Shown piece by piece: positions 3,523 through 46,040 of a stretch of 64,000 nucleotides of DNA. Within the stretch, counting starts at the first letter, position 1. The number at the start of each line of letters is the position of its first letter. Both the position numbers and the translations under genes were made by a program. Location of the stretch: positions 16,096-80,095 of the forward strand of contig DUKY01000011.1 in NCBI GenBank assembly GCA_013329055.1, read 5' to 3'. The notes beneath the pieces were generated by a model. The model was not told the DNA's origin. It searched no databases and worked only from the letters and a program-made list of their open reading frames with translations. This stretch comes from Nanobdellota archaeon (lineage in GTDB: Archaea; Nanobdellota; Nanobdellia; Pacearchaeales; GW2011-AR1).

Positions 3523-4971
3523 TTATACTAACTTTTCAAGTTCTTCAAAACCTTCTAAAAGTTCTTTAACTTCTTTCTTGGCTTCTTTTATTATTTCCTT
3601 ACTATTTCGATGAATTACTTCTTCGTGCTTTTCTTTTCTATATTTGTTAATTGATAAATCAAAGTCGTTAGCCTTTATTTCATCAATTGAAACAAAAAAG
3701 GATTTTTTAGAAATATCTTTATTATCTTCCTTTTTTCTTTTTTCAAATCTTTCTAAAATATCTGGTATATCGTTTTCTTTTATCTCGTTTCTCTTATCGT
3801 CTAAACTATAACCGTCCGCTTCCATATCGTAAAACCAAACTTTCTCTGTTGGTTCCCCTTTTGTAAAATAAAGAACTGCTGTGGAAACCCCTGCGTAAGG
3901 TTTGAATATCCCTGAAGGCATAGATATAACAGCATCAAGACGGCACTTTTCTAATAAAAGTTTTTTTATGGATTTATGTGCATTAGAGTTACCGAATAAA
4001 ACACCTTCTGGAACAATTACAATGCATCTTCCTCCCACGGAAAGAGAATTATACATAAGTTCTAAGAAAAGTAATTCTGTTTTACTTGTGCTTATAGTTA
4101 GTTCATCTGATTTCTCACTTTCATTTATGGATCCTTTAAATGGTGGATTTGCTAAGATTAAATCATAAATTCCATTCTCGTTATATCTTTTTGATAAAGT
4201 ATCTTCTCCAACAATCTTTGGATTAGTTATTCCGTGCATCATTAAGTTCATGACTGCAATTCTAACCATAGTCCTATCGATATCATATCCATATAGAGAT
4301 TCTTCATCAAGAATTTTCTTCTTTTGAGGAGTTAGAGTGCTTACTCCATTCTTTTGATTTGTCCTTAAAATATATTCATAGGCATTAACCAAGAAACCCG
4401 CAGTTCCACAGGCGGGATCTAAGATTCTATCTCCAAATTCAGGTCTTGCTAAATCAACCATCATTCTAATTATATGTCTTGGAGTTCTAAACTGCCCGTT
4501 TTTTCCTGCTGATTGTAGCTCTGATAAAAGATACTCGTATATATCCCCTTGAGTATCCTGATTTTGTTCTTTAATATGTAAATCATTAATTATATTTACT
4601 GCTTCAATCAAAAGAGACGCTGTTGGAAGAGAAAAACTTGCATCTTTCATATATTTAGCATAAGAAGAATTTGCTTCTCCTAAATTTCTCATAAAAGGAA
4701 AGACAACATCTCTGACATGAGCTAAGATTTTATCGGAAGAATATTCACTCCAAACAGACCACCTGCAATTTTCGTGCCCTATAAAAACAGATTTATATTT
4801 GACCCCCTTAAGAACTGCATTTTGTTCATCTAAAATATCTTTATCTTCCATTTTCTTCATGAAAATTAAATAAGATATTTGTTCTATTGCTTGAAGGGGG
4901 TTACTAATTCCTCCACTCCAAAATTTATCCCATAACTTTCTTATCTTTGATTTTAGTTCCGTGTGTAACAT
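3523..4971 (-). CDS. hsdM: type I restriction-modification N6-adenine DNA methyltransferase subunit
   Basis: SAM-binding motif DPACGTAGFL and catalytic motif NPPF (LANPPFKGS). The N-terminal HsdM-like helical region begins LWDKFWSGGISNPLQAIEQISYLIF. Confidence 0.9.
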   Translation of the reverse strand: MLHTELKSKIRKLWDKFWSGGISNPLQAIEQISYLIFMKKMEDKDILDEQNAVLKGVKYKSVFIGHENCRWSVWSEYSSDKILAHVRDVVFPFMRNLGEANSSYAKYMKDASFSLPTASLLIEAVNIINDLHIKEQNQDTQGDIYEYLLSELQSAGKNGQFRTPRHIIRMMVDLARPEFGDRILDPACGTAGFLVNAYEYILRTNQKNGVSTLTPQKKKILDEESLYGYDIDRTMVRIAVMNLMMHGITNPKIVGEDTLSKRYNENGIYDLILANPPFKGSINESEKSDELTISTSKTELLFLELMYNSLSVGGRCIVIVPEGVLFGNSNAHKSIKKLLLEKCRLDAVISMPSGIFKPYAGVSTAVLYFTKGEPTEKVWFYDMEADGYSLDDKRNEIKENDIPDILERFEKRKKEDNKDISKKSFFVSIDEIKANDFDLSINKYRKEKHEEVIHRNSKEIIKEAKKEVKELLEGFEELEKLV

Positions 4972-4974
4972 GTT

Positions 4975-6387
4975 TTATTTAAAAACCTCCCAATGTCCTC
5001 TACCACCAGTTTGAGGACCTATTCTCTTAATTTTTCCTTCTTGCTTCAATATGTCTATATCTCTCTTTATAGTCTTTTCATTGGCTTTTAGTTGAGACGA
5101 TATCTCAGATATTGCAACTTTATTATTACTTTTTATCATTGCAAGAATATCTTCTCTTCGCTTATCGGGGACATTATCGGGGACATTATCGGGGACATTA
5201 TCCCACTTAGTCTTTAGAGGAAACTCTATTTTATAGAAGGTAATCTCATTCTCAACAATAGGCTCAATTTTATAATAAGACTTCCAGCCATTAAACATCT
5301 TATCAAAACCATAGCCTGCATTTTCAGCAAGTTTGAGTATTCTAAATATTTTTATTAGAATAGGATTTCTCGGAAGAGTAAGTTCTTGTTTTCTTAAAAC
5401 CTCGACAGTAGCTGGCAAACTTCCAGGATTCATAAATTCAAGTCTATCTGAGAATACCCTTACTCTGGGCTTCATTGTGCCAAAATAGTCTGAATGTGCT
5501 AGAAGATTTACTAATGCTTCCCTTATTGCCAAAACTTGAGGTTGATTTTCATCTCTAAAAGCTCCTTTTGTTTTAAATGGAATGTCTATTCTTGTCAGAA
5601 GTCTTTCAAAGATACTAAAGAAGTAGTTGTAAAGATTCTTTTGTAATGGCATTCTATAGGTATATCTTTCAGGAGCATCTGAATAAGATGTCCCCCTTAT
5701 TTCTAAATAATCAATCATAAAATCAGAAAATACCTTACCTATTGAATCTTCATTTCCAAACATTAAAAGTCCCGCAATAGTTACTTTGCCATCAATTGTA
5801 ACTCTTAATTTTTCAAATAATTCTGCTTCGGAAAGATCGCCGTAAGGATTAGCAGAATCAAGATTTTTTATGTAATTCCTAAATCTATCTAGTGTTTCTT
5901 TGTCTAAGTCTTTTAATTTAAATTTTGTTGTTTCTTTGTCTTTAGTTCCAAATGCCGAGTCTCTAAATAATGCATTAAGTTCTTCATAAGTCGCTCTTTG
6001 ATCTCCACTACCTGTTCTTATAAAAGTATTTTTGGGATTATCATAAAAAATAGGCTTGCTCTCTGCAACAGGTATATAAAAAGCAAGAACTGTTTTACTA
6101 TCGAAATTATACTTTTTACATTTAACTTCTAATTTCTTATTAAACTTCTGACCATTTCTTAAGACCCCTATAAAATCTTGTTCTACTTTTTCAGGATTTG
6201 AAACTCCAAGGATAGTGTATTCTTTTCCTTCTTTCTTTACTCCAAAGACAAGCCAGCCTCCAGCAGTATTTGAAAAAGCACTTACAGTCTCCCAGCTATT
6301 TTTTGGAACTTCAGATTTTGCTTCTTTAACCTCAAAGTCTTCCCATTCAATATCCTCTAATTTTTTTATTAATTCTTGTTTGTTCAT
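4975..6387 (-). CDS. AlbA_2/Schlafen-like DNA-binding protein with C-terminal winged-HTH
   Basis: N-terminal EWEDFEVKEAKSE...SAFSNTAGGWLVFGV is typical of the AlbA_2 domain. C-terminal DeoR-like HTH (ISEISSQLKANEKTIKRDIDILKQEGKI). Genes of this kind are frequent passengers in type I R-M loci. Confidence 0.65.
   Translation of the reverse strand: MNKQELIKKLEDIEWEDFEVKEAKSEVPKNSWETVSAFSNTAGGWLVFGVKKEGKEYTILGVSNPEKVEQDFIGVLRNGQKFNKKLEVKCKKYNFDSKTVLAFYIPVAESKPIFYDNPKNTFIRTGSGDQRATYEELNALFRDSAFGTKDKETTKFKLKDLDKETLDRFRNYIKNLDSANPYGDLSEAELFEKLRVTIDGKVTIAGLLMFGNEDSIGKVFSDFMIDYLEIRGTSYSDAPERYTYRMPLQKNLYNYFFSIFERLLTRIDIPFKTKGAFRDENQPQVLAIREALVNLLAHSDYFGTMKPRVRVFSDRLEFMNPGSLPATVEVLRKQELTLPRNPILIKIFRILKLAENAGYGFDKMFNGWKSYYKIEPIVENEITFYKIEFPLKTKWDNVPDNVPDNVPDKRREDILAMIKSNNKVAISEISSQLKANEKTIKRDIDILKQEGKIKRIGPQTGGRGHWEVFK
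5163..5202. repeat. 12-nt tandem repeat x3.3 inside a CDS, encoding (DNVP)3
   Basis: tatcggggacat is repeated back to back. It translates to DNVPDNVPDNVPD on the minus strand. Confidence 0.9.
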
Positions 6388-6390
6388 TTT

Positions 6391-6669
6391 TCACTTCTTA
6401 ATTCTTTCAGTTTTATATTTCTTATATTCTCGTAACCTTAATTTATTTATTTTCAGATTTTTTAACTCTTCCCATAATTTTTTATTTATCTTTTTGTAAT
6501 CAATAAAGATTCTCCCTCTTTCACCACCAAATTCACAATAACAATAAGGCATTCCTCCTTGAGAAGCTTCTTCTAATTGTTTACTATAAGTTGATAGCTC
6601 TCCACATGACGGACAGATGTAATATTTTTCTTTGAAATTCTTTGAAAGGTTTTTTGCTTTTTTATTCAT
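6391..6669 (-). CDS. small hypothetical protein, possible zinc-ribbon
   Basis: 92-aa ORF with CPSCG ... CYCEFGG. 4-nt overlap with the upstream ORF. Confidence 0.4.
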   Translation of the reverse strand: MNKKAKNLSKNFKEKYYICPSCGELSTYSKQLEEASQGGMPYCYCEFGGERGRIFIDYKKINKKLWEELKNLKINKLRLREYKKYKTERIKK

Positions 6670-7076
6670 TTTTTTGATCCAATCCTTTTATTTAAACAGA
6701 ATAATCCTTTTTCTCTAACTATTAATTCATTATCATTAACTTTTATTGTTTTATTTGATAAAATATCTTTATACTCTTCTCCCCTATTTTTTAAAAAATA
6801 TTTACATCCCTCTTTTAGAAAATGGGTTGAAATAAAATAAACATTATTCTTTGATTGATCACCAGAGCAAATATAGATTTCCATTCTAAAATCACGATTA
6901 TAATCTTTTAAAAAAATAGTTTCATTATCAATTAATATTCCGGATTCATTGATTAAAAAATTACTGATTCTTTCGGAATCACAAAGAGTATAAGATACCA
7001 CACTAACAGAGATTATGCTTACCCCAATAAAAAACCCAATAATTAGTAAAATTATTTTTTTCATATTATAATTCAC
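6666..7076 (-). CDS. membrane-anchored hypothetical protein
   Basis: 136-aa ORF with an N-terminal hydrophobic helix (KKIILLIIGFFIGVSIISVSVV). Overlaps the hsdS stop. Confidence 0.4.
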   Translation of the reverse strand: MNYNMKKIILLIIGFFIGVSIISVSVVSYTLCDSERISNFLINESGILIDNETIFLKDYNRDFRMEIYICSGDQSKNNVYFISTHFLKEGCKYFLKNRGEEYKDILSNKTIKVNDNELIVREKGLFCLNKRIGSKK

Positions 7077-8235
7077 CCCTAAATGCTTTTTGCATTAGCG
7101 AATCAAATAATTCTTCGGAGCTTTGTTTAGTTTTCTTTTGCTTTTCTTTCATCTTTTCAACTTTCTCGACGATGTTTGCGAATTTTTGTTGGAGGGGAAG
7201 TGGCGGGAGGGGGATTTTAAAATTATCAACAAAATATTTTGGCAATCTTCTAAGCCCCCCAGTTCCAGTTAATTGTTTTTCGCCTAATTTAATAAAAGTT
7301 TCACTGGAAATAACATAGTAAACAAGTTCTGGCAAAATATTTTTTGTTGGACGTAATACGTGATATTCGCTTGAGCCAAACCCAATTCTATTTTTTAAGT
7401 TCTTACATATTCCAGATTTACCATTTTCAAAGCAAGGAGTTACCTTAGCCAATAAAATATCTCCTTCCATAAAGTAAGTATATCCCTTATACACTTCCTT
7501 TATCCTTCGTATTTCTTTGGGTTTAAAATGAATACTGTGTTCTGAAATATCCGCCATTGGAACAAAAGAAACTTCTAAATTATTATCTTCTTTCCCAATT
7601 TCAGATTTTTTAGGATTGATTTCACAAATATCCCCTAGCTTAACTTTTTCAAAATCTTTCTTCAAAAACATCTCATTAAAAATAGCCTTAAGATATTCAT
7701 CAAGTAATTCACTGGCTTTCTTACTTTTTTCTTTCTGCTTTTCTGCTTTTTCTAAAATTGCGACGATTTGTTTTTGTGTTTCGAGGTCTGGTTTTCCTTC
7801 GGGGTTTTCAAGGGTCGGGGGGAGATAAGGGAGGAGGATTTTTTTCTCTTTAAGAAATTTATAATGTCTGCTATATCCTGCCGAAGAAATCTTTAATTTT
7901 TTTAGGGCGTAATAAAAATATTTTTGGGAAATATTTTCTTTTGGAACTAATATTTTAACTCCATCTGCACCAAGAGCAAATGGGAAATTAATAAATTTTA
8001 AAATTCTTGTATGGTCTCCAAAGATAATCACAGGTAATTTTTCATCATAAACTTTTGATTTGTCATTAGTATATCCTGCAATAAATTCTTCTCCTTGATC
8101 AATTATGGGATATTTGCCCTTTTTCAAAAAATCCTTTCCTTGAATTTTAAGATTATTGCTTGAAGCTTCTTTTTCAAGACAATCTAAGAAATTGATGTCT
8201 CTCCATTCAATTTTATTGGTTTGTTGGATTTTCAT
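7066..8235 (-). CDS. hsdS: type I restriction-modification specificity subunit
   Basis: Two target-recognition halves separated by conserved helical spacers (LPPLPLQQKFANIVEKVEKMKEKQKK; EKQKEKSKKASELLDEYLKAIFNEMF). Size and context match HsdS. Confidence 0.85.
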   Translation of the reverse strand: MKIQQTNKIEWRDINFLDCLEKEASSNNLKIQGKDFLKKGKYPIIDQGEEFIAGYTNDKSKVYDEKLPVIIFGDHTRILKFINFPFALGADGVKILVPKENISQKYFYYALKKLKISSAGYSRHYKFLKEKKILLPYLPPTLENPEGKPDLETQKQIVAILEKAEKQKEKSKKASELLDEYLKAIFNEMFLKKDFEKVKLGDICEINPKKSEIGKEDNNLEVSFVPMADISEHSIHFKPKEIRRIKEVYKGYTYFMEGDILLAKVTPCFENGKSGICKNLKNRIGFGSSEYHVLRPTKNILPELVYYVISSETFIKLGEKQLTGTGGLRRLPKYFVDNFKIPLPPLPLQQKFANIVEKVEKMKEKQKKTKQSSEELFDSLMQKAFRGEL

Positions 8236-8701
8236 TTTTTGATAGATGCTTCTTAAATTTTTTTAATTCACTTATAGTCCTTTTAGAAATATAAGGAGTA
8301 AAATTAATTTTCAGATGACCTTGACTAAATTTAGCCCTTAGGGTTACTCCATTATTATGCCCTCCAATCTCAAGATATTTCTTTTTTGTGATTTTGTAAT
8401 AATTTTTAAAATTATTATCTATGAAATAAGATACTAAAACGATTTCAGGGTCTATATCCTTCATGGTATCTTCATTTAGATCAAGCATCTTTGGGTGAGG
8501 GGACCACCATGCCATTTCCAAACCTAATAATTTTACTATAAATTTATTATATAAAAAATAAACTCCGATAAATACAATAAATATTATAATAATGATAAAT
8601 CCCTTTGGCAAAAGAGTTATCATTAAAGCAAATAATATACCAATAAGAAAGAAAAAGAATCCCATAATAGCCGATTTTTGAATACTGTTTAATTTTTTCA
8701 T
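8213..8701 (-). CDS. hypothetical two-TM membrane protein
   Basis: 162-aa ORF with two N-terminal hydrophobic helices. 23-nt overlap with the hsdS start. Confidence 0.4.
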   Translation of the reverse strand: MKKLNSIQKSAIMGFFFFLIGILFALMITLLPKGFIIIIIFIVFIGVYFLYNKFIVKLLGLEMAWWSPHPKMLDLNEDTMKDIDPEIVLVSYFIDNNFKNYYKITKKKYLEIGGHNNGVTLRAKFSQGHLKINFTPYISKRTISELKKFKKHLSKNENPTNQ

Positions 8702-8847
8702 TTTCTTTTTTTAGCATAAAAACTTACTTTTACTTTTTGAGTTTTTCGAACTTTAAAACAAACTTTTCTTCCATCTTTTGTTTTAAAACAAATATTTTTC
8801 TTTATTGGTTTTTTAGCCATAAAACTAACTCTTTTTCTTTGTGCCAT
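8698..8847 (-). CDS. possible 49-aa very basic peptide (below the ORF-track cut-off)
   Basis: Hand translation: MAQRKRVSFMAKKPIKKNICFKTKDGRKVCFKVRKTQKVKVSFYAKKRK. Its ATG abuts the TAA of the upstream ORF, and its TGA overlaps the ATG of the downstream ORF (ATGA). Confidence 0.3.
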   Translation of the reverse strand: MAQRKRVSFMAKKPIKKNICFKTKDGRKVCFKVRKTQKVKVSFYAKKRK

Positions 8848-9390
8848 TTATATCAACCTCTCAATAATTTTAATTGTGATATTCAAAATCATAACAGCAT
8901 CCAATTCACTAACTTCTTTTAAAATTTCATGAACAGAATTATTTCTTTGACTTCTTAGTCCATGAAGGAAATGATAATCTGATTCTTCAATAAGATTTGT
9001 TTTTTTTGCTTCTTCAATTAAGTTGTAAAAATTCTTTTTATTTACTTTTTCTTTTGTTAAAGCTTCAGCAAATAAGTTAGCTAGACTATTCTCAAATCTT
9101 TCTTTTAATATATTTTCTATTAAAGCAGATGCAACAACCACAGAACTTCTAAATAATCCGTAAGAATAGGCCCTATATGATTCAACAAACGCAGAATAAT
9201 ATTCTGGTTTTTTTCCTAATTTAGAAATAAAATCCTGTGTTAAAGGAACTCTCTGAGCTTTGCTATTAATCTGCGACTGAAATGCTTTATAATTTTCTAA
9301 TGCTTGTTTATCCGCAGGATTTGGTGCAGAAATTGCTGCTCCGACAAATCCTCCAAGAATCATTGCTAAAAGTTTATCATTTTGTGTCAT
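8848..9390 (-). CDS. hypothetical protein with C-terminal Rx4H motif (HEPN/DUF4145-like)
   Basis: 180-aa ORF. The C-terminal LHGLRSQRNNSVHE contains R-NNSV-H. The N-terminus is hydrophobic and Gly-rich. Confidence 0.35.
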   Translation of the reverse strand: MTQNDKLLAMILGGFVGAAISAPNPADKQALENYKAFQSQINSKAQRVPLTQDFISKLGKKPEYYSAFVESYRAYSYGLFRSSVVVASALIENILKERFENSLANLFAEALTKEKVNKKNFYNLIEEAKKTNLIEESDYHFLHGLRSQRNNSVHEILKEVSELDAVMILNITIKIIERLI

Positions 9391-9394
9391 TTTT

Positions 9395-11566
9395 TTAAAA
9401 TATAATCTCCTTTAATTTTTTAATCTCTTCTACAGTAGGCTGATTGACTGCATAGGGGTTTAATATAATATCCCCGACTAAGATAAATTTAACCTTGCCA
9501 TCTAAATTTACTAATTGTTTTTTGAAATAAATTAATCCACTAACAATTTGTTTATCTTTGGCAATTGCATCATCTTTTCTTATTAGTTCGGGCTTTGTTG
9601 TTTCTCCAGTTTCATTATTCCTATAAAATTGGTAAGTCAATGTTCCAAAAAAACTATTTGCTATCATGTATTCATCTATAACCGAAGAACTTGCATCAAC
9701 GACAATAAAATACAAATCATTTCTAATACCCTTTTTCATTTCTTCAAAAGATTCCAGAGAATAAAATTGACTTGATTTTTCTTTGAGAATTTTATCAACC
9801 TTATTATTTATCGTAACTGCACCGTTATCTAAATGTAAACTTCTATCTCCTTTAGAGTTTTTAATCTCAAAAAAAACATTCTTATTATTTAATTTAATAT
9901 ATAAATCTGCATTATTGTTTTTATTCGGAATCTTTGGTTCAAGAATTGAATTTAAGTTCTCTTCCAAAAAAATAAATTTGTTTGTAAAGATAATCTCGCT
10001 AAAATCATCCCAAAACTTATCTTCATTTTCAAGACCCCTAATTAATGACGTGCGATTATCTTTATTCCGTTCATTAGAAATATTTTTTGAGTAACTAAGA
10101 AAATTCTCTATTTCATTCAAATATGCCTTTTTTAGTTCTTTATCTCTTTGTTGGCTACCTAACCAAAATAAAGGACTATATCTTTTTTTGTTATATAACT
10201 CTTTTAATTTATGTTTAATTATCTTGTCTAATTCGGAAAATTCTTTTAAAGATTCATCAATTTCATTAAATTCAAAATCAATAATTCTAAATCTTAATTG
10301 TTCCAATAATCCATTAATATAATTAATTAGTTCATCAAAATTATTTTTGTTAACCAATTCATCAAATGTTTTTTTATTTTCATTAATAAAATCTTTATTC
10401 TCGGATATTTCTTCTATCTTTTTAGCTAAGGGGAAAAATAAATTAAACGCCTTCTTTTTATCCTGGTCTTTGTAGATTATTCCAATAATTTTACTAACAA
10501 GTTCATAATAGAGTTTAGGATCCTTGTCAAAAATCTTTTTTTCCATCAATTCTCTTGAAGCAAATTCAACATTTTGAGAAGCCATTTTTTCAAAAATCCT
10601 TGGAAAGATATACTTATAATCTAACTTCTCAGTTTTTACTTTTTCAAAATTATCTAAAAAATAATCTATAAACTTCTCATTCTTTTTTACCAACTCTTGA
10701 ATAGCCCAATCAAAATGCTGAACTTTGAATTCTAAATCTTTATTTATCCAATAGATAAATAGCTTAGATATTTTTTCAATTTCGTCAGGGTAATCTATCA
10801 ACGGATACATCATATCGTTGATAATGGTTTCTTCTGAATTCTTATATAATTCTATTAATTCCAAAATGTGTTCTTTATCTAATTTAATTCCAATTGTTTT
10901 CCAAAATAGTAATCTATTCACTGAAATAATTTTTCTTTCGGCAAGTGATTTTATTTTCTCATAAAAATAACTTTTCTCGTTTTTATAGAATGACAAATAA
11001 AGATTCATAAGTTCGGTTAATATCCTCTCATCATGAGATAACATTGTCTTATTAAGACACTCTTTAACTTCAGTAGGTAAAATTTCTTTTTCATATTTTA
11101 CCAAAATTGCTTTAAGAATAGTATTTTTCGTTGGATATTCCAAATTTCTTTTAATTAAATCCTTTAATAATCCTTCATTGTAAAATGAATATCCCCCAAG
11201 TATTAACCCAGAGATTATTTTAAGATCTATATTATTAGATTTATTTTGGATTATATAATATAATTTTATTGCTACTTCTTGCTTTTCTTTTCCAACTTTT
11301 ATTAACATCTCAAAAAAAGGTCCACTTGCCATATCTCCTTTTACTTTTAAAAAGACACTATCTAAATATTCCAGATATTTTTCACTATCAGAAGCTAAAT
11401 CAAATAAGATTTCTATAGATAATTGAAAATAATTCCAAATAGACTCTTTATTTATTTCATCTAATAAGACATATTTGTTTTCTTCAGTTATATCTCCCTT
11501 TATCTTAGAATATTCTTCTTTTTGTTTATCAAATTCAAATCTAAATTGTTTAAATTTTTCAATCAT
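9395..11566 (-). CDS. large helical protein with C-terminal PD-(D/E)xK-like nuclease motif
   Basis: 723-aa ORF. About 500 aa are Lys/Glu/Leu-rich and predicted helical. The C-terminus has FSEII...ADLYIKLNNKNVFFEIKNSKG (E ... D ... ExK spacing). Confidence 0.35.
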   Translation of the reverse strand: MIEKFKQFRFEFDKQKEEYSKIKGDITEENKYVLLDEINKESIWNYFQLSIEILFDLASDSEKYLEYLDSVFLKVKGDMASGPFFEMLIKVGKEKQEVAIKLYYIIQNKSNNIDLKIISGLILGGYSFYNEGLLKDLIKRNLEYPTKNTILKAILVKYEKEILPTEVKECLNKTMLSHDERILTELMNLYLSFYKNEKSYFYEKIKSLAERKIISVNRLLFWKTIGIKLDKEHILELIELYKNSEETIINDMMYPLIDYPDEIEKISKLFIYWINKDLEFKVQHFDWAIQELVKKNEKFIDYFLDNFEKVKTEKLDYKYIFPRIFEKMASQNVEFASRELMEKKIFDKDPKLYYELVSKIIGIIYKDQDKKKAFNLFFPLAKKIEEISENKDFINENKKTFDELVNKNNFDELINYINGLLEQLRFRIIDFEFNEIDESLKEFSELDKIIKHKLKELYNKKRYSPLFWLGSQQRDKELKKAYLNEIENFLSYSKNISNERNKDNRTSLIRGLENEDKFWDDFSEIIFTNKFIFLEENLNSILEPKIPNKNNNADLYIKLNNKNVFFEIKNSKGDRSLHLDNGAVTINNKVDKILKEKSSQFYSLESFEEMKKGIRNDLYFIVVDASSSVIDEYMIANSFFGTLTYQFYRNNETGETTKPELIRKDDAIAKDKQIVSGLIYFKKQLVNLDGKVKFILVGDIILNPYAVNQPTVEEIKKLKEIIF

Positions 11567-12227
11567 CTTTTTTTACCTCATAATTATCTGATTTGTGTAT
11601 ATCAAATTTATCTGAATATATTCTATTTTTTAATTTTATTTTGAATTTTCTTATCTTTCCCTCTTCTATACAGAAAATTTCTACCGGGAATAAAGCAGGA
11701 TGTCCCGTCATTGCATCATGTTTTCCTAAAAAATCAAAACATTCAAAAAAATTTTCAAAAATTTCTTTTTCATAATCTGTCACCAAAAATAGTTTCTCTT
11801 GACATTGTCCAATAAATTCAGAATTTGGGGAGCCAATCATTGCAAAATTAACCTCTTCATTATGTTGTTCCTTAAGATTTACAAATTTTTTATAAGTTAA
11901 ATTGGTAATATCTATCACGAGAATTCCAGACCCCATATTCAAATATTTAATATGTTGCTCCGTCTCTATAGATGGTGCATAATTCTCATTACTCATTGCA
12001 TTTTCAATCCTTGCTTTAAAATCTTCAAGATTAATACAGCTAATGGATTGATTATACACATGATTGATTATTAAATCACTCCCCGATCCAGCAAATAAAA
12101 ATTTCCCAGCAATTAAGGGAAATATCTTTGTTTTTGAATAAGTAGATACATCATAAGCATGTTGAGTATCTCCTGCCAAGAACAATCTTTCTCCATTTTT
12201 TGTTTTAAACAATATTATTGAAGTCAT
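11559..12227 (-). CDS. proteasome-beta/HslV-like Ntn hydrolase (Thr1 after Met)
   Basis: MTSIILFKTKNGERLFLAGDTQ...KTKIFPL...FAGSGSD aligns by eye with the genuine PsmB in this window (TTILGIVCKNGIVMAGDNR...EKVYQI...FSGCGSATEA). Thr1, the Asp of AGD, the Lys and the GSG block are all present. Confidence 0.55.
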   Translation of the reverse strand: MTSIILFKTKNGERLFLAGDTQHAYDVSTYSKTKIFPLIAGKFLFAGSGSDLIINHVYNQSISCINLEDFKARIENAMSNENYAPSIETEQHIKYLNMGSGILVIDITNLTYKKFVNLKEQHNEEVNFAMIGSPNSEFIGQCQEKLFLVTDYEKEIFENFFECFDFLGKHDAMTGHPALFPVEIFCIEEGKIRKFKIKLKNRIYSDKFDIHKSDNYEVKKDD

Positions 12228-12358
12228 CCCCTTCCACCCCCAATCAAAAACTTCTTATCATAAGAAAGTTCCTCTTTATCTAACAGCTTTTCAACTATCT
12301 CTTTGTAAGTCTTAACTTTCTTTTTCAATGTAATCATAGCCCAATCATCTCCAAACAT
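12224..12358 (-). CDS. possible 44-aa ORF (below the ORF-track cut-off)
   Basis: Hand translation: MFGDDWAMITLKKKVKTYKEIVEKLLDKEELSYDKKFLIGGGRG. Its TGA overlaps the ATG of the Ntn-hydrolase ORF. Confidence 0.2.
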   Translation of the reverse strand: MFGDDWAMITLKKKVKTYKEIVEKLLDKEELSYDKKFLIGGGRG

Positions 12359-12527
12359 ATAACTTTTCTCCATTAAATCCGAAGACCAAAACATTTTTAT
12401 ATTCCATATTCCTGTATTTTATTGTAAGCGGACCGGTTCCGTAAAAGGTTTGATTATTCAAACTGACCAACGCTTTATGCGTGTGATTGGTTGGGAAGAC
12501 CGCTAATCGCTTACATTTTATTTTCAT
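12345..12527 (-). CDS. doubtful 60-aa ORF overlapping a GC-rich structured patch
   Basis: Listed in the ORF track, with no motif. It overlaps both neighbouring ORFs and may be spurious or a frameshifted fragment. Confidence 0.2.
   Translation of the reverse strand: MKIKCKRLAVFPTNHTHKALVSLNNQTFYGTGPLTIKYRNMEYKNVLVFGFNGEKLYVWR
12424..12514. other. GC-enriched 91-nt element closed by a 7-bp stem
   Basis: GTAAGCG (12424-12430) pairs with CGCTTAC (12508-12514). Internal hairpins are TTTGA-TTAT-TCAAA and CCAACGC-TTTAT-GCG..TTGG. By hand count about 46% G+C in a much more AT-rich context. Confidence 0.3.
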
Positions 12528-13023
12528 TTAATTCCTCCCAATAATTTTTAATTGAACTAAATGGAACATCAACAATATTTAACTTCTTTCCTCTAATCTG
12601 CCTATTTGTCTTTAATGCTCTTCTTCGGTATATTCTCGCATAATTATCCGCTAAAGAACCAATATTTCTTCCAAGTCTTTTCCTGAACTCAGAGATATTA
12701 ATAATTTCAAAAGAATAATTTTTTAACAAATAATCCAAAATATTTTTAACAACTTGAAAATCTTCATCATTACAAATTATCAAGGTTTTAAGATCTTTTT
12801 CAACATTTTTAACCAAAAGATAAATACAAATGGCATATAATTTTGCAGAATCCTCATAAATATTTTTTTTAAATAATCTTCTCTTAATTAACTCTAGTAA
12901 ATTTCCCTTCAAAGCACATCCATAATTAACTTTTGTTTTTGAGCCTACAAGAGCAATACCTATAGTTTTCTTCCAATAGATTCTTCCACTCATATCAACA
13001 TGAAAATCATCTTTTTCTATCAT
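12511..13023 (-). CDS. hypothetical protein
   Basis: 170-aa ORF with no recognisable motif. Its start overlaps the stop of the RHH-like ORF (ATGA). Confidence 0.45.
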   Translation of the reverse strand: MIEKDDFHVDMSGRIYWKKTIGIALVGSKTKVNYGCALKGNLLELIKRRLFKKNIYEDSAKLYAICIYLLVKNVEKDLKTLIICNDEDFQVVKNILDYLLKNYSFEIINISEFRKRLGRNIGSLADNYARIYRRRALKTNRQIRGKKLNIVDVPFSSIKNYWEELNENKM

Positions 13024-13193
13024 TCCTCCTCCCCCAATCCAGTTTCTTTTCTTATCATCTCTCTAAGTTTTGTATTTACAGTTTTGCCTTCCTGATCACA
13101 AAGTTTTTTGAAAAAAAGAAATTCACTTTTATACAATCTTGTAGAAACAATTTTCCTCTCTTCACCGCTTAAATCATGATTTTTTAAAACCAT
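13020..13193 (-). CDS. 57-aa ribbon-helix-helix (CopG-like) protein (below the ORF-track cut-off)
   Basis: Hand translation: MVLKNHDLSGEERKIVSTRLYKSEFLFFKKLCDQEGKTVNTKLREMIRKETGLGEEE. The pattern is a beta-strand (KIVSTRL) followed by two helices, as in RHH regulators or antitoxins. Confidence 0.45.
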   Translation of the reverse strand: MVLKNHDLSGEERKIVSTRLYKSEFLFFKKLCDQEGKTVNTKLREMIRKETGLGEEE

Positions 13194-13253
13194 AGAAAAA
13201 ATAAAAATAAGAACTATTTAAATATTTAGGTAGTTACCTGTATACACCTTTTT

Positions 13254-13279
13254 GTTCATAAATTGTATAATTTATGAAC
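13254..13279. promoter_or_regulatory. perfect 11-bp inverted repeat upstream of the RHH ORF (candidate operator)
   Basis: GTTCATAAATT-GTAT-AATTTATGAAC, about 60 nt upstream of the RHH start. An AT-rich TATA-like TTTAAATATTT lies at 13217-13227. Confidence 0.35.
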
Positions 13280-13394
13280 TATTTCCACTTTTCCATTTTT
13301 CCACAAGTATTATATACCATAACCATCTATATATTTTATCTGGGTAAGTCCTAGGGAGGTTTGTGTACCGGAATGGTGCACCTTGTCTTAATCT

Positions 13395-14033
13395 CTAGGG
13401 TCCGGATAACTTTTCAAACACTTCTTTCTTTATTACTATTTTATCCTTTATTGTGTTCATAAAATTGGAATCTTTGAATTCATAATTTCTAAAAATTGCC
13501 CATGAAATAAAATCTAAAACCTGCAAACAACCTTCTTTCTGAGAATCCTCGTGTCTTATGTCTATTTTACAATTAGAATTATTCTGAACTAAGCTAGATC
13601 TAATATAATTATCAAAATCCTCCCTCAAGGAACGATTGGTCTTGGACTTATCAACAATTAAACAAACATGATTATTATCCAAAGAGCATTCGTTTAAAAT
13701 AAGATTTGAAATGTAATTGTACAACTTATCTTTTTTGTTTTTTAGATATTCATAAACTTTGGATTTTTCAAGAATTATAACAAATACTTCTGAGTTTGTT
13801 TCCACAAATCTTTTTAAGATCTCTGCTCTTATTTTGTCTGTACTGTTATTTCCCTTTAGTTCAGGATACTTTTTCATTTTCTTTTTGATTATTTTTTGTC
13901 TGACTTTTTTCATTATTCTTCTTAAAGAATAAACTTCTTCCTCATCACAAGATAATAGAGCTATAACAAAATATTTGCTTGAAGTTGATTTAAATCCAAG
14001 TTCTCCACTCTCATCAAGAAAGATATATTTCAT
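13395..14033 (-). CDS. DUF3800-family protein
   Basis: N-terminal YIFLDESGELGF is characteristic of DUF3800. The ORF starts 1 nt after the hsdR stop. Confidence 0.65.
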   Translation of the reverse strand: MKYIFLDESGELGFKSTSSKYFVIALLSCDEEEVYSLRRIMKKVRQKIIKKKMKKYPELKGNNSTDKIRAEILKRFVETNSEVFVIILEKSKVYEYLKNKKDKLYNYISNLILNECSLDNNHVCLIVDKSKTNRSLREDFDNYIRSSLVQNNSNCKIDIRHEDSQKEGCLQVLDFISWAIFRNYEFKDSNFMNTIKDKIVIKKEVFEKLSGP

Positions 14034-14034
14034 C

Positions 14035-16782
14035 TTATTTCCACTTCAATTCATTGCATTTTTGAACAATTGTCTCCAATTGTTCCTTACTAAAAGCATC
14101 TAAAGGTCTTCCTTCTGCCAAAGGATGTTCTGCAAAATTCTTTAATTCAATATGTTTCGCCCGAACAAAAACCTGCTCTAACATCCTTAAAAATTTCAAT
14201 TGTTGAGAATTATAATGTTCATTTTTATCCATAACAAATTTATCAAATTCCCATTTAATCATTTCTTGGGGATCAGGTAATCCCTTTATTTCTAATAATC
14301 CTCTCAAGAATAAAATAAAATCTTGACTCTGTTGAATGTTATCAATAGTCCATCTAGGATTTAAGCCTCTTAAATTTTTTTCAATTTCCAATAGTTCTTT
14401 AGATGTGACTCCATCTCCATTTTTAATTTTTTCTAATAGCTTATTACTGTTAACAAAATAAGAATAGTTTTCACCTTCTTTAACTTTCATTATTTCTTTT
14501 TTAACATCAATAACTATATCTGGAGCATTGATTTTTAACATATTTTTTCTTTCTTGTTCGTAGAATATCATTAAAGGAGAAATTTCTCTAACTAAGAAAT
14601 CAACATCTTCAAAAGTTATTTCTTCCCAAAATTGCTCTTTTTGGATTCTTACTAAATCATTCCTTTTCTGTTTTACAGCATCTAAGTTCTTATCCCAAAT
14701 AGAATCTACCCTTTCTACAACAAACTCTTCAATCTTAGCAATTTTATTTTTATTTCCGGTTTTTATGCAATCAAAAAGTTTAACGCACTGAGAAATGAAA
14801 CCATAAACTTTTGCATTTTCAGAAGGAGTATAAATCAAAAGAGGAGCTATTTCATTTCTTAATTCCTCAACATGTTCTCGCAAATCAAATTTAGAAGAAA
14901 CAACTTTTGTTATAATATTTTTCTTCTCAATAACCAATGGAGATTCAACATCAATTTCTTTAATTGTATCACGAATTTGTTTTTCAACAATTTTTCTCTC
15001 CTTCTCATCTAAATTTTTCTCCAAAGCATCAACTTGTTCTAAAAATATTCTTGTTTTAGCGTCAGTTCCAGAAGATTTTTGTTTAAAAATGTTTAATTTA
15101 TGTTGCATCACATTAGACCAATCTCCAAATTTAAAATCCAATATCAAAAAATCTTCTTTTATGTGTTGTCCATCTTTATTTGTTGGCAACCATTCTTTAT
15201 TTTCACAGGCAGATAAACTCCTTGTTCCTCTTCCTAACATCTGCCAAAATCTAATTGAAGACATTACGGGTTTAACAAAAACTAAATTCATTACTTCAGG
15301 AACATCAACCCCAGTATCTAAAACTCCAACAGATAAAGCAATTCTTGGGCTATCTCTTTTCTCAAATCTTTTAACCTCATCCATGTAACGAGATTTATCA
15401 GAAGTAATAACTTTTACATCCTTTGCTAAAGAGGGGTAAAGTTTTTGAAATAATTTTTCTAAAGATTCCGCATGTTTTACACTTGCACAGAAGAAAATAC
15501 TTTTACATGGCCTATTATCATCTGATTTATAACACCTATCAACAAATTCTCTAATGATTAATTCGTTAGTTTTTTCATCTGTAAAAAATCTTTCAAATTT
15601 AGAACCTGGTGTTTGAAATTTCTCTGGGTCTTCCTCTTGTTGCTTTAATGCTTGTTGTAATTCTTTATTCAATTTTTTTCCTTCAATTCCTAATGAAAGA
15701 ACACTTGTTTCAATAATTTCTGCTACATAAGGAGCTAAAATTTTGTCTCTTACTGCAGAATCATAATCATATCTAAAGGTAGGTTTTCCATTATCACAAT
15801 TAAAGAGATCAAAAGTATTTCTTGTTTCTTCTGAAGAAGGAGTGGCAGTTAATCCAACTTTTAAAGCATCAAAATATTTGAAGATATCATTATTTTTATC
15901 ATAGTAAGAACGGTGTGCTTCATCAAAAATAATTAAGTCAAATGCTCCAGGACCAAATTTTTCATAAAATTTCCCTCTTGGTTTTTGAGGAGACATTAAA
16001 GTTTGAATTGTAGAAACATAAAATCTTGCACTACTTGAATATCCTTCTTCATTCAACTCACAAACTGGAGATTCAGGAAAAAATTTCTTAAATCCTTTTT
16101 CTTTTGCCTGATTTCCTAGAGAAATTCTATCAACAACAAATAGGACTTTTTGTACATATTCTGCTTTTATTAAACAATCTATTAAAGCCATTGCTACTCT
16201 TGTTTTTCCAGTTCCAGTAGCCATATTAATAAGAGCCTCTCTATGTCCATCAGAGAAATGTTCTAATACTGTTTTAACTGCCTCAACACACATCTTTCTG
16301 TTTAAAATAGTAGAACTCACCTTAACATTTGCTGGGTCTTTTCTTTGTTTCATTAAGCTAATTATTCTATGCAAATCTTGTTGAGAAAAAGGCAAGAGAA
16401 TTTTTCTTCTTCTATCTAAGTCATCAACATAATACCAATTTGTTCCGTTAGTTAAGAATATAGGGATTTTAATTTTAATTTGTTTTTCAATATCATCTCT
16501 ATAAGTTCGTGCTTGAATTTCCCCTTTTTCAATGTCAATAGAAGTTTTTTTTGCTTCTACAATTGCAAGGGGACTTCTATCTTCATCTAATAATAGATAA
16601 TCAATAAAATGATCCACTCCTTTTTCTATTCCAGCTTCACGACCAATATATTCTTTAGTTTTAAATTTGGATTTAACTGGATTAATTTCTTCTTTGACAT
16701 AATGTCCTTTAACTTTCCATCCTGTCCTTTCTAAAATTGGATCTATCAAGTTTTTTCTTGTTTGTTCCTCAGTAAGCCCCAT
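14035..16782 (-). CDS. hsdR: type I restriction enzyme R subunit (nuclease-helicase)
   Basis: N-terminal PD-(D/E)xK (DYLLLDED...AIVEAKK), Walker A MATGTGKT, DEAH box IFDEAHRS, helicase motif VI QMLGRGTR, and a long C-terminal helical domain as in EcoEI-type HsdR. Confidence 0.85.
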   Translation of the reverse strand: MGLTEEQTRKNLIDPILERTGWKVKGHYVKEEINPVKSKFKTKEYIGREAGIEKGVDHFIDYLLLDEDRSPLAIVEAKKTSIDIEKGEIQARTYRDDIEKQIKIKIPIFLTNGTNWYYVDDLDRRRKILLPFSQQDLHRIISLMKQRKDPANVKVSSTILNRKMCVEAVKTVLEHFSDGHREALINMATGTGKTRVAMALIDCLIKAEYVQKVLFVVDRISLGNQAKEKGFKKFFPESPVCELNEEGYSSSARFYVSTIQTLMSPQKPRGKFYEKFGPGAFDLIIFDEAHRSYYDKNNDIFKYFDALKVGLTATPSSEETRNTFDLFNCDNGKPTFRYDYDSAVRDKILAPYVAEIIETSVLSLGIEGKKLNKELQQALKQQEEDPEKFQTPGSKFERFFTDEKTNELIIREFVDRCYKSDDNRPCKSIFFCASVKHAESLEKLFQKLYPSLAKDVKVITSDKSRYMDEVKRFEKRDSPRIALSVGVLDTGVDVPEVMNLVFVKPVMSSIRFWQMLGRGTRSLSACENKEWLPTNKDGQHIKEDFLILDFKFGDWSNVMQHKLNIFKQKSSGTDAKTRIFLEQVDALEKNLDEKERKIVEKQIRDTIKEIDVESPLVIEKKNIITKVVSSKFDLREHVEELRNEIAPLLIYTPSENAKVYGFISQCVKLFDCIKTGNKNKIAKIEEFVVERVDSIWDKNLDAVKQKRNDLVRIQKEQFWEEITFEDVDFLVREISPLMIFYEQERKNMLKINAPDIVIDVKKEIMKVKEGENYSYFVNSNKLLEKIKNGDGVTSKELLEIEKNLRGLNPRWTIDNIQQSQDFILFLRGLLEIKGLPDPQEMIKWEFDKFVMDKNEHYNSQQLKFLRMLEQVFVRAKHIELKNFAEHPLAEGRPLDAFSKEQLETIVQKCNELKWK

Positions 16783-17385: not shown

Positions 17386-18120
17386 ATGCCAATTAATCAT
17401 ATTACTGGAAATGCTATAATGGGCAAGCAAATGATTTCTCAGTTTGCATCTTGTGGTTTTATGCTTGAAATTTTATATTCTTTTGTAATTATTGTTTGCA
17501 GTTTAATGATTTATTTTGGTACAAAAGAATTATACGAATTAAGTTCTCATAAAGGAATTAAATATTTTAGATTATCTTTTCTTTTTTTTGCTATTGCTTA
17601 TTTTTTCAGGTCTTTTATTAAATTTGTAGTTATTTATTTTAATATTGAATCAATTTTTAATTTTTCTCCTAAGACTTTTGGAATTTTATTTGGTTCTGCT
17701 ACAATGTTTGTTTTTATGTATTTTAGTGCTATGGCAATTTTTTATCTTCTTTATAGTGTAATGTGGAAAAAATTAGAAAAATCACCGAATAAAATTTATT
17801 TGTTTCATTTTTTTGCTTTTATTATTTCTTTGATTACTATAATTTTTATGAATCCGTTTGTTTATCTGTGGATGAATTTATTGTTGCTTTCTTGTGTTAT
17901 TTTTATTTATTATCTTTCAAGAAAACAATCAAAAGTTAAAAAGTCTAAACATAATCTTCACATAATTTATACTTTGCTTTTTTCATTTTGGGTTTTGAAT
18001 ATTATTGATATTTTAATTCCTACTTTTTTCAAGACTTTTCAGTTATTCATTTATCTTGCTTCTATTTTCTTATTTTTATTAATGCTTTACAAAGTTATTA
18101 AGAAAACAGGTGCAAATTAA
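17386..18120 (+). CDS. polytopic membrane protein
   Basis: 244-aa ORF with about 7 hydrophobic segments. The start codon is uncertain. Confidence 0.5.
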   Translation: MPINHITGNAIMGKQMISQFASCGFMLEILYSFVIIVCSLMIYFGTKELYELSSHKGIKYFRLSFLFFAIAYFFRSFIKFVVIYFNIESIFNFSPKTFGILFGSATMFVFMYFSAMAIFYLLYSVMWKKLEKSPNKIYLFHFFAFIISLITIIFMNPFVYLWMNLLLLSCVIFIYYLSRKQSKVKKSKHNLHIIYTLLFSFWVLNIIDILIPTFFKTFQLFIYLASIFLFLLMLYKVIKKTGAN

Positions 18121-18394
18121 AATGGTTGTTAAAAGAAATAAATTAGAAATTATTAAGGATATTTTGAATTTGATTAATAAAAATCATAATTTGATAAAAT
18201 ATACTCCTTTACTCCGGCAGTCAAATATTTCTTCTTCTCGTTTTAAAGAATATTACATTGAGCTTTTGAAAAAAGATTTTGTTAAAGAGGTTCATCAAAA
18301 AAGAGAGAAATTTGTTTCTTTAACTGAAAAAGGGTTTAAGTTTTTAGAAAAATACGAAGTTATTGTTAATTTTATTGAAGAGTTTGAACTTTGA
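18110..18394 (+). CDS. small winged-helix DNA-binding protein
   Basis: 94 aa. The pattern RNKLEIIKDIL...YTPLLRQSNISSSRFKEYYIELLKKDFV...LTEKGFKFL resembles archaeal HTH_45/COG3432-type regulators. Confidence 0.5.
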   Translation: MQIKMVVKRNKLEIIKDILNLINKNHNLIKYTPLLRQSNISSSRFKEYYIELLKKDFVKEVHQKREKFVSLTEKGFKFLEKYEVIVNFIEEFEL

Positions 18395-45413: not shown

Positions 45414-46040
45414 ATGGATCAAGAATCAAAAAATATTTTAAAAACAGGAACAACAATCTTAGGAATTGTTTGCAAAAATGGAATTGTAATGGCAGGGGAT
45501 AATCGAGTATCACTTGGGCAAAGCATAATAATCGACAAAGACATGGAAAAAGTGTATCAAATAAATGATTACTTAGTTTTCTCTGGCTGTGGTTCAGCAA
45601 CAGAAGCACAAAAAGTAGCAAAAGTCTTAACCGCAGAATTAAAATTAAAAGAATTAAAATCCAGATCAAGACCAAGCGTAAGACAATCTGCTTCATTACT
45701 TTCTAATTTTCAAGTTTCACAAAGTGCATTTATCTTAGCAGGATTTGATGAAGACGGAGAAACATCACTATATGAAATAACAGGTGGATTTCTAAAAAAA
45801 GTTAAAGATTATACCGCAAGTGTCGGTTCAGGAATGCCTTATGTATTAGGACTTTTAGAAAGACAATACAAAAAAGATTTAACTCTAAAAGAAGGAATTG
45901 AACTAGCATCAGAATCCATAAAAGCATCTTCAGCAAGAGATATGGCATCAGGAAATGGAATAGACATTTATACCATAACAAAAGAAGGAATTAAAAAAGT
46001 AGTAACTCAAAGAACAGAACAAAACTACAAAGACGAATAA
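45414..46040 (+). CDS. psmB: proteasome subunit beta
   Basis: Short propeptide, then GTTILGIVCKNGIVMAGDNR. The length and the GSGMPY block are typical. Confidence 0.9.
   Translation: MDQESKNILKTGTTILGIVCKNGIVMAGDNRVSLGQSIIIDKDMEKVYQINDYLVFSGCGSATEAQKVAKVLTAELKLKELKSRSRPSVRQSASLLSNFQVSQSAFILAGFDEDGETSLYEITGGFLKKVKDYTASVGSGMPYVLGLLERQYKKDLTLKEGIELASESIKASSARDMASGNGIDIYTITKEGIKKVVTQRTEQNYKDE

Follow-up and report, generated by a model that had tools for sequence, protein, structure and literature searches.

A rare, divergent proteasome/HslV-like protein and its solenoid partner in restriction-modification loci of DPANN archaea

Proteasome-type proteases are known as housekeeping degraders, with the ligase Connectase as the exception, and a link to defence is absent from the literature that we searched: looking for proteasome-like or HslV proteins together with anti-phage or defence functions, we found no proteasome-type enzyme tied to defence loci. 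The present analysis concerns a stretch of 64,000 nucleotides from a Nanobdellota archaeon (GenBank assembly GCA_013329055.1, contig DUKY01000011.1, positions 16,096 to 80,095), hereafter called the window, in which the gene for a 222-amino-acid protein, SMALL (11559..12227, minus strand), overlaps the gene for a 723-amino-acid protein, BIG (9395..11566, minus strand). SMALL has been publicly deposited as 'hypothetical protein' (KHO50669.1). Based on the open reading frame (ORF), an AlphaFold 2 (AF2) model, Foldseek searches and the detection of the Pfam family PF00227 in relatives, it was assigned as a divergent proteasome/HslV-fold hydrolase of the N-terminal nucleophile (Ntn) type, with Thr1 as the predicted nucleophile and without a propeptide. 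BIG, its obligate partner, was delimited from its ORF, its homologs and an AF2 model with a predicted local distance difference test (pLDDT) score of 90.5. Within the proteasome/HslV Ntn-hydrolase superfamily, SMALL represents a branch that is both rare and very divergent, and the two genes form a portable cassette that is found mostly inside restriction-modification (RM) operons and sometimes beside integrases.

HslV (ClpQ) shares the fold of SMALL, and the HslV proteins of T. maritima and T. brucei were its best structural matches, with template modelling (TM) scores of 0.69-0.70 normalised to the target. Like SMALL, HslV is encoded with a Met-Thr start and without a long propeptide, and the equivalents of Thr1, Lys33 and the glycine loop lie in the same register. 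However, SMALL exceeds HslV by about 45 residues and has a beta extension at its C-terminus, its partner is a non-ATPase solenoid and not HslU or another AAA+ protein, and it fails the NCBIfam HslV model. It also differs in coming from archaea (DPANN), where its occurrence is limited to accessory RM loci. The 20S beta subunit, represented in the window by PsmB, has the same fold as well and shares the equivalents of Thr1, Asp17, Lys33 and Gly47, whereas SMALL lacks both a propeptide and an autolytic Gly-Thr site (PsmB has ...KTG followed by TT), and its gene is linked to that of BIG instead of psmA or other proteasome components.

Apart from these, Fuchs, Alva and Lupas (2021; PMC8665760) described 22 families of orphan proteasome homologs, including WPH, PHI, ACC, PMI, PPH, AAH and others. 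Like SMALL, these are rare and divergent prokaryotic proteins in which the beta-sheet core persists along with the catalytic triad and Gly47, while a propeptide is missing and the C-terminus is divergent. The text of that paper makes no mention of DPANN hosts, restriction systems or operon partners, and its archaeal ACC family carries a C-terminal coiled coil, whereas the SMALL model ends in beta strands. Connectase (PMC7980362) resembles SMALL in being a divergent archaeal proteasome homolog with a free Thr1 or Ser1, one dedicated partner and no unfoldase, but it lacks helices H1 and H2 and has a two-helix lid (PMC8665760), whereas the SMALL model contains helices at residues 51-61, 67-77 and 87-96 between strands S4 and S5 and no lid. 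The hosts and partners differ too, Connectase occurring in methanogens with MtrA as partner, and SMALL in other hosts with BIG. Going by the descriptions of Fuchs and colleagues, SMALL would represent a new family of proteasome homologs, and both its strictly conserved partner and its genomic setting are new.

With respect to genomic placement, the nearest parallels are cassettes of one or two genes, located between hsdR and hsdS/hsdM of type I RM operons, that provide a complementary or backup layer, i.e. TgvAB, PrrC, Ronin and PARIS. TgvAB is a defence module carried within a type I RM operon (PMC11411939); the backup systems PrrC, PARIS and Ronin respond to anti-restriction proteins (bioRxiv 10.1101/2023.04.06.535777). 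The placement of the SMALL/BIG pair is the same, but these systems belong to other protein families, none of them contains a proteasome-family enzyme, and PADLOC-DB v2 holds no family that matches SMALL or BIG at E≤1. With respect to concept, cysteine and serine proteases coupled to a repeat sensor and an effector are represented by the Craspase TPR-CHAT protease, the Lon-like CalpL and the caspase-like activators of gasdermins. The SMALL/BIG pair would be comparable to these in combining a dedicated protease with a repeat-protein sensor and an effector.

Fold and active site of SMALL

The AF2 model of SMALL (pLDDT 81; predicted TM score, pTM, 0.83) orders its elements as S1-S2-S3-S4-H1-H2-S5..S8-H3-H4-S9-S10, as in beta subunits, and displays the four-layer alpha-beta-beta-alpha sandwich by which membership of the Ntn superfamily (MEROPS T1 / PF00227 clan) is tested. 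When the model was compared with the PDB by Foldseek, the top 50 matches were all 20S beta subunits or HslV (E 8e-8 to 2e-6, probability 1.0), with alignments spanning 195-224 of 222 residues and TM scores of at most 0.70 (normalised to HslV 1m4y), and a comparable match to phage HslV-like proteins was returned from a viral library. Sequence identity to the solved subunits among the PDB matches did not exceed 18%. Judged from the model, SMALL almost certainly has the proteasome beta/HslV fold, which is what the first-pass annotation had proposed from the letters of the sequence; the AF2 and Foldseek results bear this out, as does the PF00227 match in two relatives described below.

That proposal was based on an alignment by eye with PsmB (45414-46040), a genuine beta subunit (PF00227, E=6e-41) whose propeptide, MDQESKNILKTG, stands directly before TT, the junction reading ...KTG followed by TTILG, and whose Thr13 is the mature Thr1. 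Such an alignment alone proves nothing, and BLASTP gave a non-significant E=0.10 for the two proteins. Comparison by hhalign, using a SMALL family profile, gave E=2.6e-3 against PsmB and E=1.3e-4 against E. coli HslV, and with PsmB it recovered exactly the register that had been drawn by eye (T2/T13, GDT/GDN, K34/K45 and FAGSG/FSGCG). The profile searches that had been suggested as a check gave marginal results. SMALL itself has no family match in Pfam, NCBIfam, PADLOC or PHROGs, and 6 of 14 relatives touch PF00227 at E≤1. Two of these, P0003 and P0004, just exceed its gathering score (23.1 and 22.9 versus 22.4 bits) with their N-terminal 50 residues only, residues 2-50 mapping to PF00227 positions 5-54 in the same register as the Thr1 of PsmB (Thr13). 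The NCBIfam HslV model NF003964 failed, being touched by only one of the 14 relatives (E=0.08); one relative has been automatically named HslV by the JGI, and one distant relative weakly matches the 'peptidase HslV family' of PHROGs. No PDB chain was matched by phmmer with the single SMALL sequence or by hmmsearch with a 14-sequence profile, and the best PDB matches of a 27-sequence profile were sub-significant, namely proteasome beta6 (E=0.012) and T. brucei HslV (E=0.36), the latter in an alignment that passes through the IGSG loop.

The family is small, amounting to 14 clusters in a word-index profile search and to 20 representatives in an exhaustive HMMER scan of 1.84 billion proteins. For the conservation of the active site we used 31 distinct sequences, comprising every small protein beside a BIG homolog together with database relatives, and these fall into at least three subtypes according to their N-terminus: MTS/MTT, MTL and MTA. 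The predicted nucleophile, Thr2 (12222..12224, minus strand), which becomes Thr1 after removal of Met, aligns with Thr13 of PsmB, and the Met-Thr start is present in 31/31 sequences. Equally invariant are Asp20 (12168..12170, minus strand), the Asp17 equivalent that aligns with GDN of PsmB and GDG of HslV, and, in a local-pair alignment, Lys34 (12126..12128, minus strand), the Lys33 equivalent that aligns with the Lys of EKVY in PsmB. The equivalent of the Gly47 oxyanion loop, Gly47-Ser-Gly49 (12081..12089, minus strand), is conserved as G-x-G, with Gly49 invariant and Gly47 found in 30/31 sequences (Ala in locus L027), and the model has it where strand E43-48 ends, ahead of helix H51. The earlier claim that the catalytic Thr1, Asp and Lys are in place thus holds in every homolog, but the segment FAGSGSD, which had been taken for the Gly-Ser-Gly loop of the proteasome, is the Gly47 oxyanion loop. 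The likely counterpart of the proteasomal Gly128-Ser129-Gly130 loop is IGSPNS at residues 131-136, going by topology only. A signature specific to the family, Gly175-His176-Pro177 (11697..11705, minus strand), is located in the loop after helix H4, between H153-170 and E182-188. Its Pro177 is invariant and Gly175, like Gly132, is at least 90% conserved, His176 being less so. In the model, this loop appears to take the position of the proteasomal Ser169/Gly170 loop, again by topology.

Methionine aminopeptidase removes Met before small second residues. Together with this specificity, the conserved Met-Thr start implies that Thr1 can be exposed without autolysis, as in HslV. The Met-Thr N-terminus of SMALL (MTSIILFKTKNGERLFLAGDTQ, from translation of the ORF 11559-12227 on the minus strand) is unambiguous, because no start codon occurs between the preceding in-frame stop and the ATG at 12227, and with Met-Thr in all 31 distinct homologs the start without a propeptide, as first read, could be retained. 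Directly 5' of it, a purine-rich GGGGTGGAAGGG tract can be read (12228..12240, minus strand) that resembles a ribosome-binding site and presumably functions as one. Since no homolog lacks Thr1, Asp or Lys and a single one lacks the Gly47-like residue, an active enzyme is favoured over a scaffold, and on the strength of these residues SMALL is probably an active Thr1 enzyme. A fold match, conserved catalytic residues and a protein other than a canonical beta subunit were thus found, whereas the lack of a significant profile match to the fold, unconserved catalytic residues or a phylogeny pointing to a second canonical subunit had been named beforehand as the outcomes that would speak against the proposal.

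Some minor features adjoin the SMALL reading frame. An ORF of 37 amino acids (MITLKKKVKTYKEIVEKLLDKEELSYDKKFLIGGGRG; 12224-12337, minus strand) precedes it, with a TGA that overlaps the SMALL ATG (ATGA). Small unrelated ORFs are located just 5' of SMALL elsewhere too, such as those of 57 and 155 amino acids in locus L005, and no conservation was found for them. The 170- and 60-amino-acid ORFs that lie 5' of SMALL in the window were considered as parts of the module and rejected, as they have no counterparts in other loci. At the other end (11559-11580 region in the window), most SMALL proteins have a conserved Asn-Tyr followed by an acidic tail, e.g. NYEVKKDD or EVKEDD, which is partly encoded inside the overlap with BIG; a role of this tail as a docking motif is pure speculation.

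Pairing with BIG and discordant divergence of SMALL

Loci examined were the window and 32 fetched loci (L numbers), of which 29 carry sequence 5' of BIG. A SMALL homolog is found immediately 5' of BIG and on the same strand in all 29, a strictly conserved pairing that upholds the view, put forward from the window alone, of SMALL and the 723-amino-acid protein as a dedicated pair. The overlap of 8 nucleotides between the SMALL stop and the BIG start (11559..11566, minus strand), also noticed at that stage, is confirmed by the ORF coordinates (9395-11566 and 11559-12227). It recurs in 14/29 loci, while in most of the others the apparent overlap measures 4 nucleotides or more, and a few show gaps of at most 69 nucleotides. 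This overlap of reading frames suggests translational coupling. Across the loci the partner is one protein of about 720-770 amino acids, with a HEAT/ARM-type solenoid and a C-terminal alpha/beta domain; its homologs form 45 clusters and come from Pacearchaeota and Woesearchaeota, one being derived from a bin labelled Patescibacteria.

Residues 1-533 of BIG (9968..11566, minus strand) form an all-helical HEAT/ARM-like solenoid, as determined by DSSP of the AF2 model and by Foldseek, the matches being generic HEAT/ARM proteins: Integrator subunits, SF3b, beta-catenin, importins, CAND1 and PP2A-A. These solenoid matches dominated the whole-chain Foldseek search, which is uninformative on the C-terminal domain. 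The latter (residues 534-723; 9398..9967, minus strand) is an alpha/beta domain and, in view of the model topology and a motif, a candidate PD-(D/E)xK-like nuclease. In the model its elements follow the order alpha-beta-beta-beta-alpha-beta, strand 2 being preceded by D554 and strand 3 containing E-x-K; D554 (9905-9907) and E567 (9866-9868) are invariant among the homologs. No family was found for BIG in Pfam, NCBIfam, PADLOC (E≤1) or PHROGs, and no ATPase domain in Pfam.

A divergent branch, in which BIG measures 750-775 amino acids, is a three-gene version of the module. Here a Cas4-like PDDEXK_1 gene of about 220 amino acids, with four conserved cysteines, adjoins the pair in 6/7 loci (L013:10253-10930, L015:9725-10387, L027:6212-6883, L029:2064-2735, L028:100-753 and L030:3213-3344). 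A gene with a Shedu SduA_C domain follows the three-gene module in L013 (10932-11960), which makes this locus look even more like a defence island.

SMALL has diverged in a manner that is discordant with its surroundings. Locus L005, a Pacearchaeota contig of 486 kb, has essentially the same RM backbone as the window, and the type I RM subunits HsdR and HsdM are 90% and 89% identical between the two. The identity is 75% for BIG, 35% for the specificity subunit HsdS and as low as 30% for SMALL (11559-12227 in the window versus L005:9340-10008); loci L016, L019, L021 and L022 provide further instances. The BIG proteins nearest to that of the window are paired with SMALL proteins of the MTL subtype, whereas the window has an MTS SMALL, and elsewhere the MTS subtype accompanies BIG proteins that are only about 50% identical. 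A SMALL that is 30% identical within an RM backbone of about 90% identity must have been swapped or diversified, about as strongly as HsdS, and we take this to suggest cassette swapping or diversifying selection on the SMALL gene. Its divergence fits with conflict-driven selection.

Restriction-modification context and possible function

SMALL had been placed in a defence context by the first-pass annotation, and the Pfam and PADLOC assignments agree with this, as they show the gene to be flanked on both sides by genes of a type I RM operon. The window pair is part of a single same-strand type I RM array of 13 kb (3523-16782, minus strand), which contains at least 8 extra genes besides the pair. 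The array is headed by the restriction subunit HsdR (14035..16782, minus strand; ResIII, EcoEI_R_C and HSDR_N, PADLOC REase_I E=2.5e-90), followed further down by HsdS (7066..8235, minus strand; Methylase_S, PADLOC Specificity_I E=9e-71), and it ends with the methyltransferase HsdM (3523..4971, minus strand). The latter was assigned from its ORF and its similarity to other loci, being 84-89% identical to ORFs of L005, L021, L022 and L025, of which the L005 ORF is annotated as HsdM_N/N6_Mtase. Of the 19 distinct DPANN loci that are informative, 15 have the pair within or adjacent to an RM operon of type I, III or IIG. In the window, and likewise in 10 other loci (L001, L002, L005, L010, L012, L018, L019, L021, L022 and L025), hsdR stands on one side of the pair and hsdS/hsdM on the other; the pair follows type III mod-res genes in L007 and L013, and Eco57I/MmeI-type methylases in L015 and L027. 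Integrases adjoin the pair in L016 and L028.

Because it is usually found inside RM operons, the pair looks like an anti-virus gene pair, and we lean towards a defence-related function. For the fuller proposal, in which SMALL and BIG constitute an RM-embedded defence module that makes use of a Thr1 protease, we consider the chances to be about even. SMALL and BIG would then form a complex that provides a second antiviral or anti-mobile-element layer alongside RM, in which the solenoid of BIG may serve as sensor or scaffold and its C-terminal PD-(D/E)xK-like domain as a DNA-directed effector. The Thr1 peptidase could gate such a system by proteolysis in two ways. Either SMALL would cleave BIG, or an inhibitor bound to it, and thereby switch on the effector, or the solenoid would present a viral or host target to SMALL, in the way that non-ATPase HEAT-repeat activators do for the 20S core. 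This specific gating mechanism is doubtful. Bolder, and equally doubtful, is the idea that the pair is the first immune system built on a proteasome-family protease, a HEAT-solenoid-nuclease sensor that is switched by, or delivers targets to, an HslV-like peptidase and backs up DPANN RM, with the diversification of SMALL reflecting its engagement with viral proteins, e.g. anti-restriction factors.

Several observations weigh against a proteolytic defence module. The case for defence is one of guilt by association, and in 4 of the 19 informative loci (L003/L024, L011, L016 and L028) the fetched flanks contain no RM gene. Isolated proteasome-type subunits are normally inactive before assembly (Fuchs et al. 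2021, PMC8665760), and Ser133, Asp171 and Thr174 of SMALL, the likely counterparts of Ser129, Asp166 and Ser169, are kept only in the MTS subtype. The nuclease assignment of BIG is affected as well: K569 (9860-9862) is present in the window and variable in homologs, PDDEXK_9 matches are sub-threshold and limited to 2/20 C-terminal domains (best E=1.5e-3), although the one inspected (E=0.05) falls on the D...E-x-K motif, a PDB sequence search with the domain gave no match, and by profile-profile comparison the domain is unlike the Cas4-like nucleases that neighbour it in some loci. Because of the sub-threshold PDDEXK_9 matches and the missing PDB and Cas4-like similarity, the PD-(D/E)xK label is plausible but unproven, and we use it as a tentative one.

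Instead of acting against invaders, SMALL might control the RM enzymes themselves by degrading the translocating R/Res subunit whenever this turns on unmodified DNA of its own host, or while the system is becoming established in a new one; the solenoid would be the adaptor. It would then stand in for ClpXP-dependent restriction alleviation, in organisms without ClpXP; such alleviation was reportedly found for E. coli type I enzymes by Makovets, Doronina and Murray in 1999. The location of the pair within same-strand RM operons in 15/19 informative loci, with the cassette oriented as the RM genes, fits this idea, and all the RM types concerned are ATP-dependent or translocating (I, III, and IIG with SNF2 helicase). 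However, the pair also occurs where the fetched flanks lack RM, beside integrases, glycosyltransferases or a DAC-domain gene, and a regulator needs neither the nuclease-like domain of BIG, with its invariant D554 and E567, nor the Cas4-like gene that the divergent branch adds. Moreover, SMALL varies far more than its supposed substrate HsdR (30% versus 90% identity), and where genes lodged in type I RM operons have been put to the test, they proved to be independent defence systems (PMC11411939), which makes control of RM unlikely. We regard as quite unlikely that the pair is an addiction or selfish module, i.e. a toxin-antitoxin-like stabiliser of a mobile RM island, with a nuclease toxin checked by the protease or the reverse and without direct antiviral sensing. 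A two-gene overlapping cassette with a discordant and patchy SMALL phylogeny, found in mobile settings with integrases, with MazE-like genes near L003 and with a resolvase beside L007, is what such a module would look like. But the 723-amino-acid solenoid is unusually large for a toxin, no BIG relatives were found in the viral contig collection scanned (plasmid collections were not searched), and the steady placement between hsdR and hsdS suits the logic of a defence island at least equally well.

Other proposals concern the chemistry and the origin of SMALL. Monomeric proteasome homologs with a free Thr1 or Ser1 can be ligases with one dedicated partner (PMC7980362). SMALL too has a single dedicated partner and dispenses with an AAA+ unfoldase, and it carries a family-specific G-H-P motif near the active-site loop. 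It could accordingly be imagined as a Connectase-like, sequence-specific transpeptidase or ligase that would employ both amine and hydroxyl of Thr1 in modifying or recombining a specific motif of BIG or another protein, or as an amidase with a non-protein substrate. This is improbable, since the SMALL model keeps the H1/H2 pair that is absent from Connectase, the subtype present in the window is without a helical insertion covering the active site, and none of the top 50 Foldseek matches was a Connectase structure. Hardly credible at all is a second housekeeping beta subunit or an archaeal HslV that happens to lie near RM genes, or a dead relic, to which the proteasome fold and the presence of a genuine PsmB in the same genome might lead. 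SMALL has no PF00227 or HslV family match, shares at most 18% identity with solved subunits and belongs to a family of 20 representatives among 1.84 billion proteins; it is confined to accessory loci, where its strict linkage is with BIG and neither with alpha subunits nor with an AAA+ gene, and the strict conservation of its catalytic residues is at odds with a relic. Its divergence, the linkage to BIG and the conserved catalytic residues effectively refute these three options, in agreement with the initial view that SMALL is not a canonical beta subunit, for which no Pfam or NCBIfam family call was obtained either.

If the protease and solenoid cassette in restriction operons is defensive, it adds a new enzymatic class to the proteases of prokaryotic immunity. 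The pairing provides one of the many orphan proteasome homologs with a concrete partner and with a biological setting that can be tested, it has a bearing on how genome-reduced DPANN archaea layer their defences, and a partner-specific Thr1 enzyme is of potential biotechnological interest, as is the case with Connectase.

Other genes of the array and its surroundings

The remaining genes of the window array are all encoded on the minus strand. Between HsdR and SMALL lie a DUF3800 gene (13395-14033) and the 170- and 60-amino-acid ORFs mentioned above (12511-13023 and 12345-12527), for which no family was found. Downstream of BIG, a DUF4145/PD-T7-3-like gene (8848-9390) and a membrane-protein gene (8213-8701) precede HsdS. 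This is followed by two ORFs of 136 and 92 amino acids (6391-7076), the 92-amino-acid product having CPSC...CYC cysteines, and by a gene that combines Schlafen-AlbA_2, HATPase_c_4 and helix-turn-helix (HTH) domains (4975-6387). Directly after HsdM comes a gene for a 595-amino-acid SNF2-family helicase (1631-3418, minus strand), and a large SNF2 helicase is also located upstream of the methylase-pair arrangement in L015.

In L003 and L024, whose cassettes are identical or near-identical, the pair is preceded by a divergently oriented ORF of 428 amino acids (L003:628-1914 and L024:3258-4544). According to the annotation, which covers L003 only, this ORF codes for DACNV/DAC (diadenylate-cyclase-like) domains, and the genes downstream include MazE-like antitoxins. 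Finally, beyond HsdR an ORF of about 240 amino acids and then one of about 90 amino acids are present both in the window (17386-18394) and in L005 (1156-2155), at differing distances. The protein of about 240 amino acids is membrane-like in the window, and that of about 90 amino acids matches HTH_45 in L005. From size and order only, there is a hint of a related genomic location of the RM island in the two Pacearchaeota genomes.

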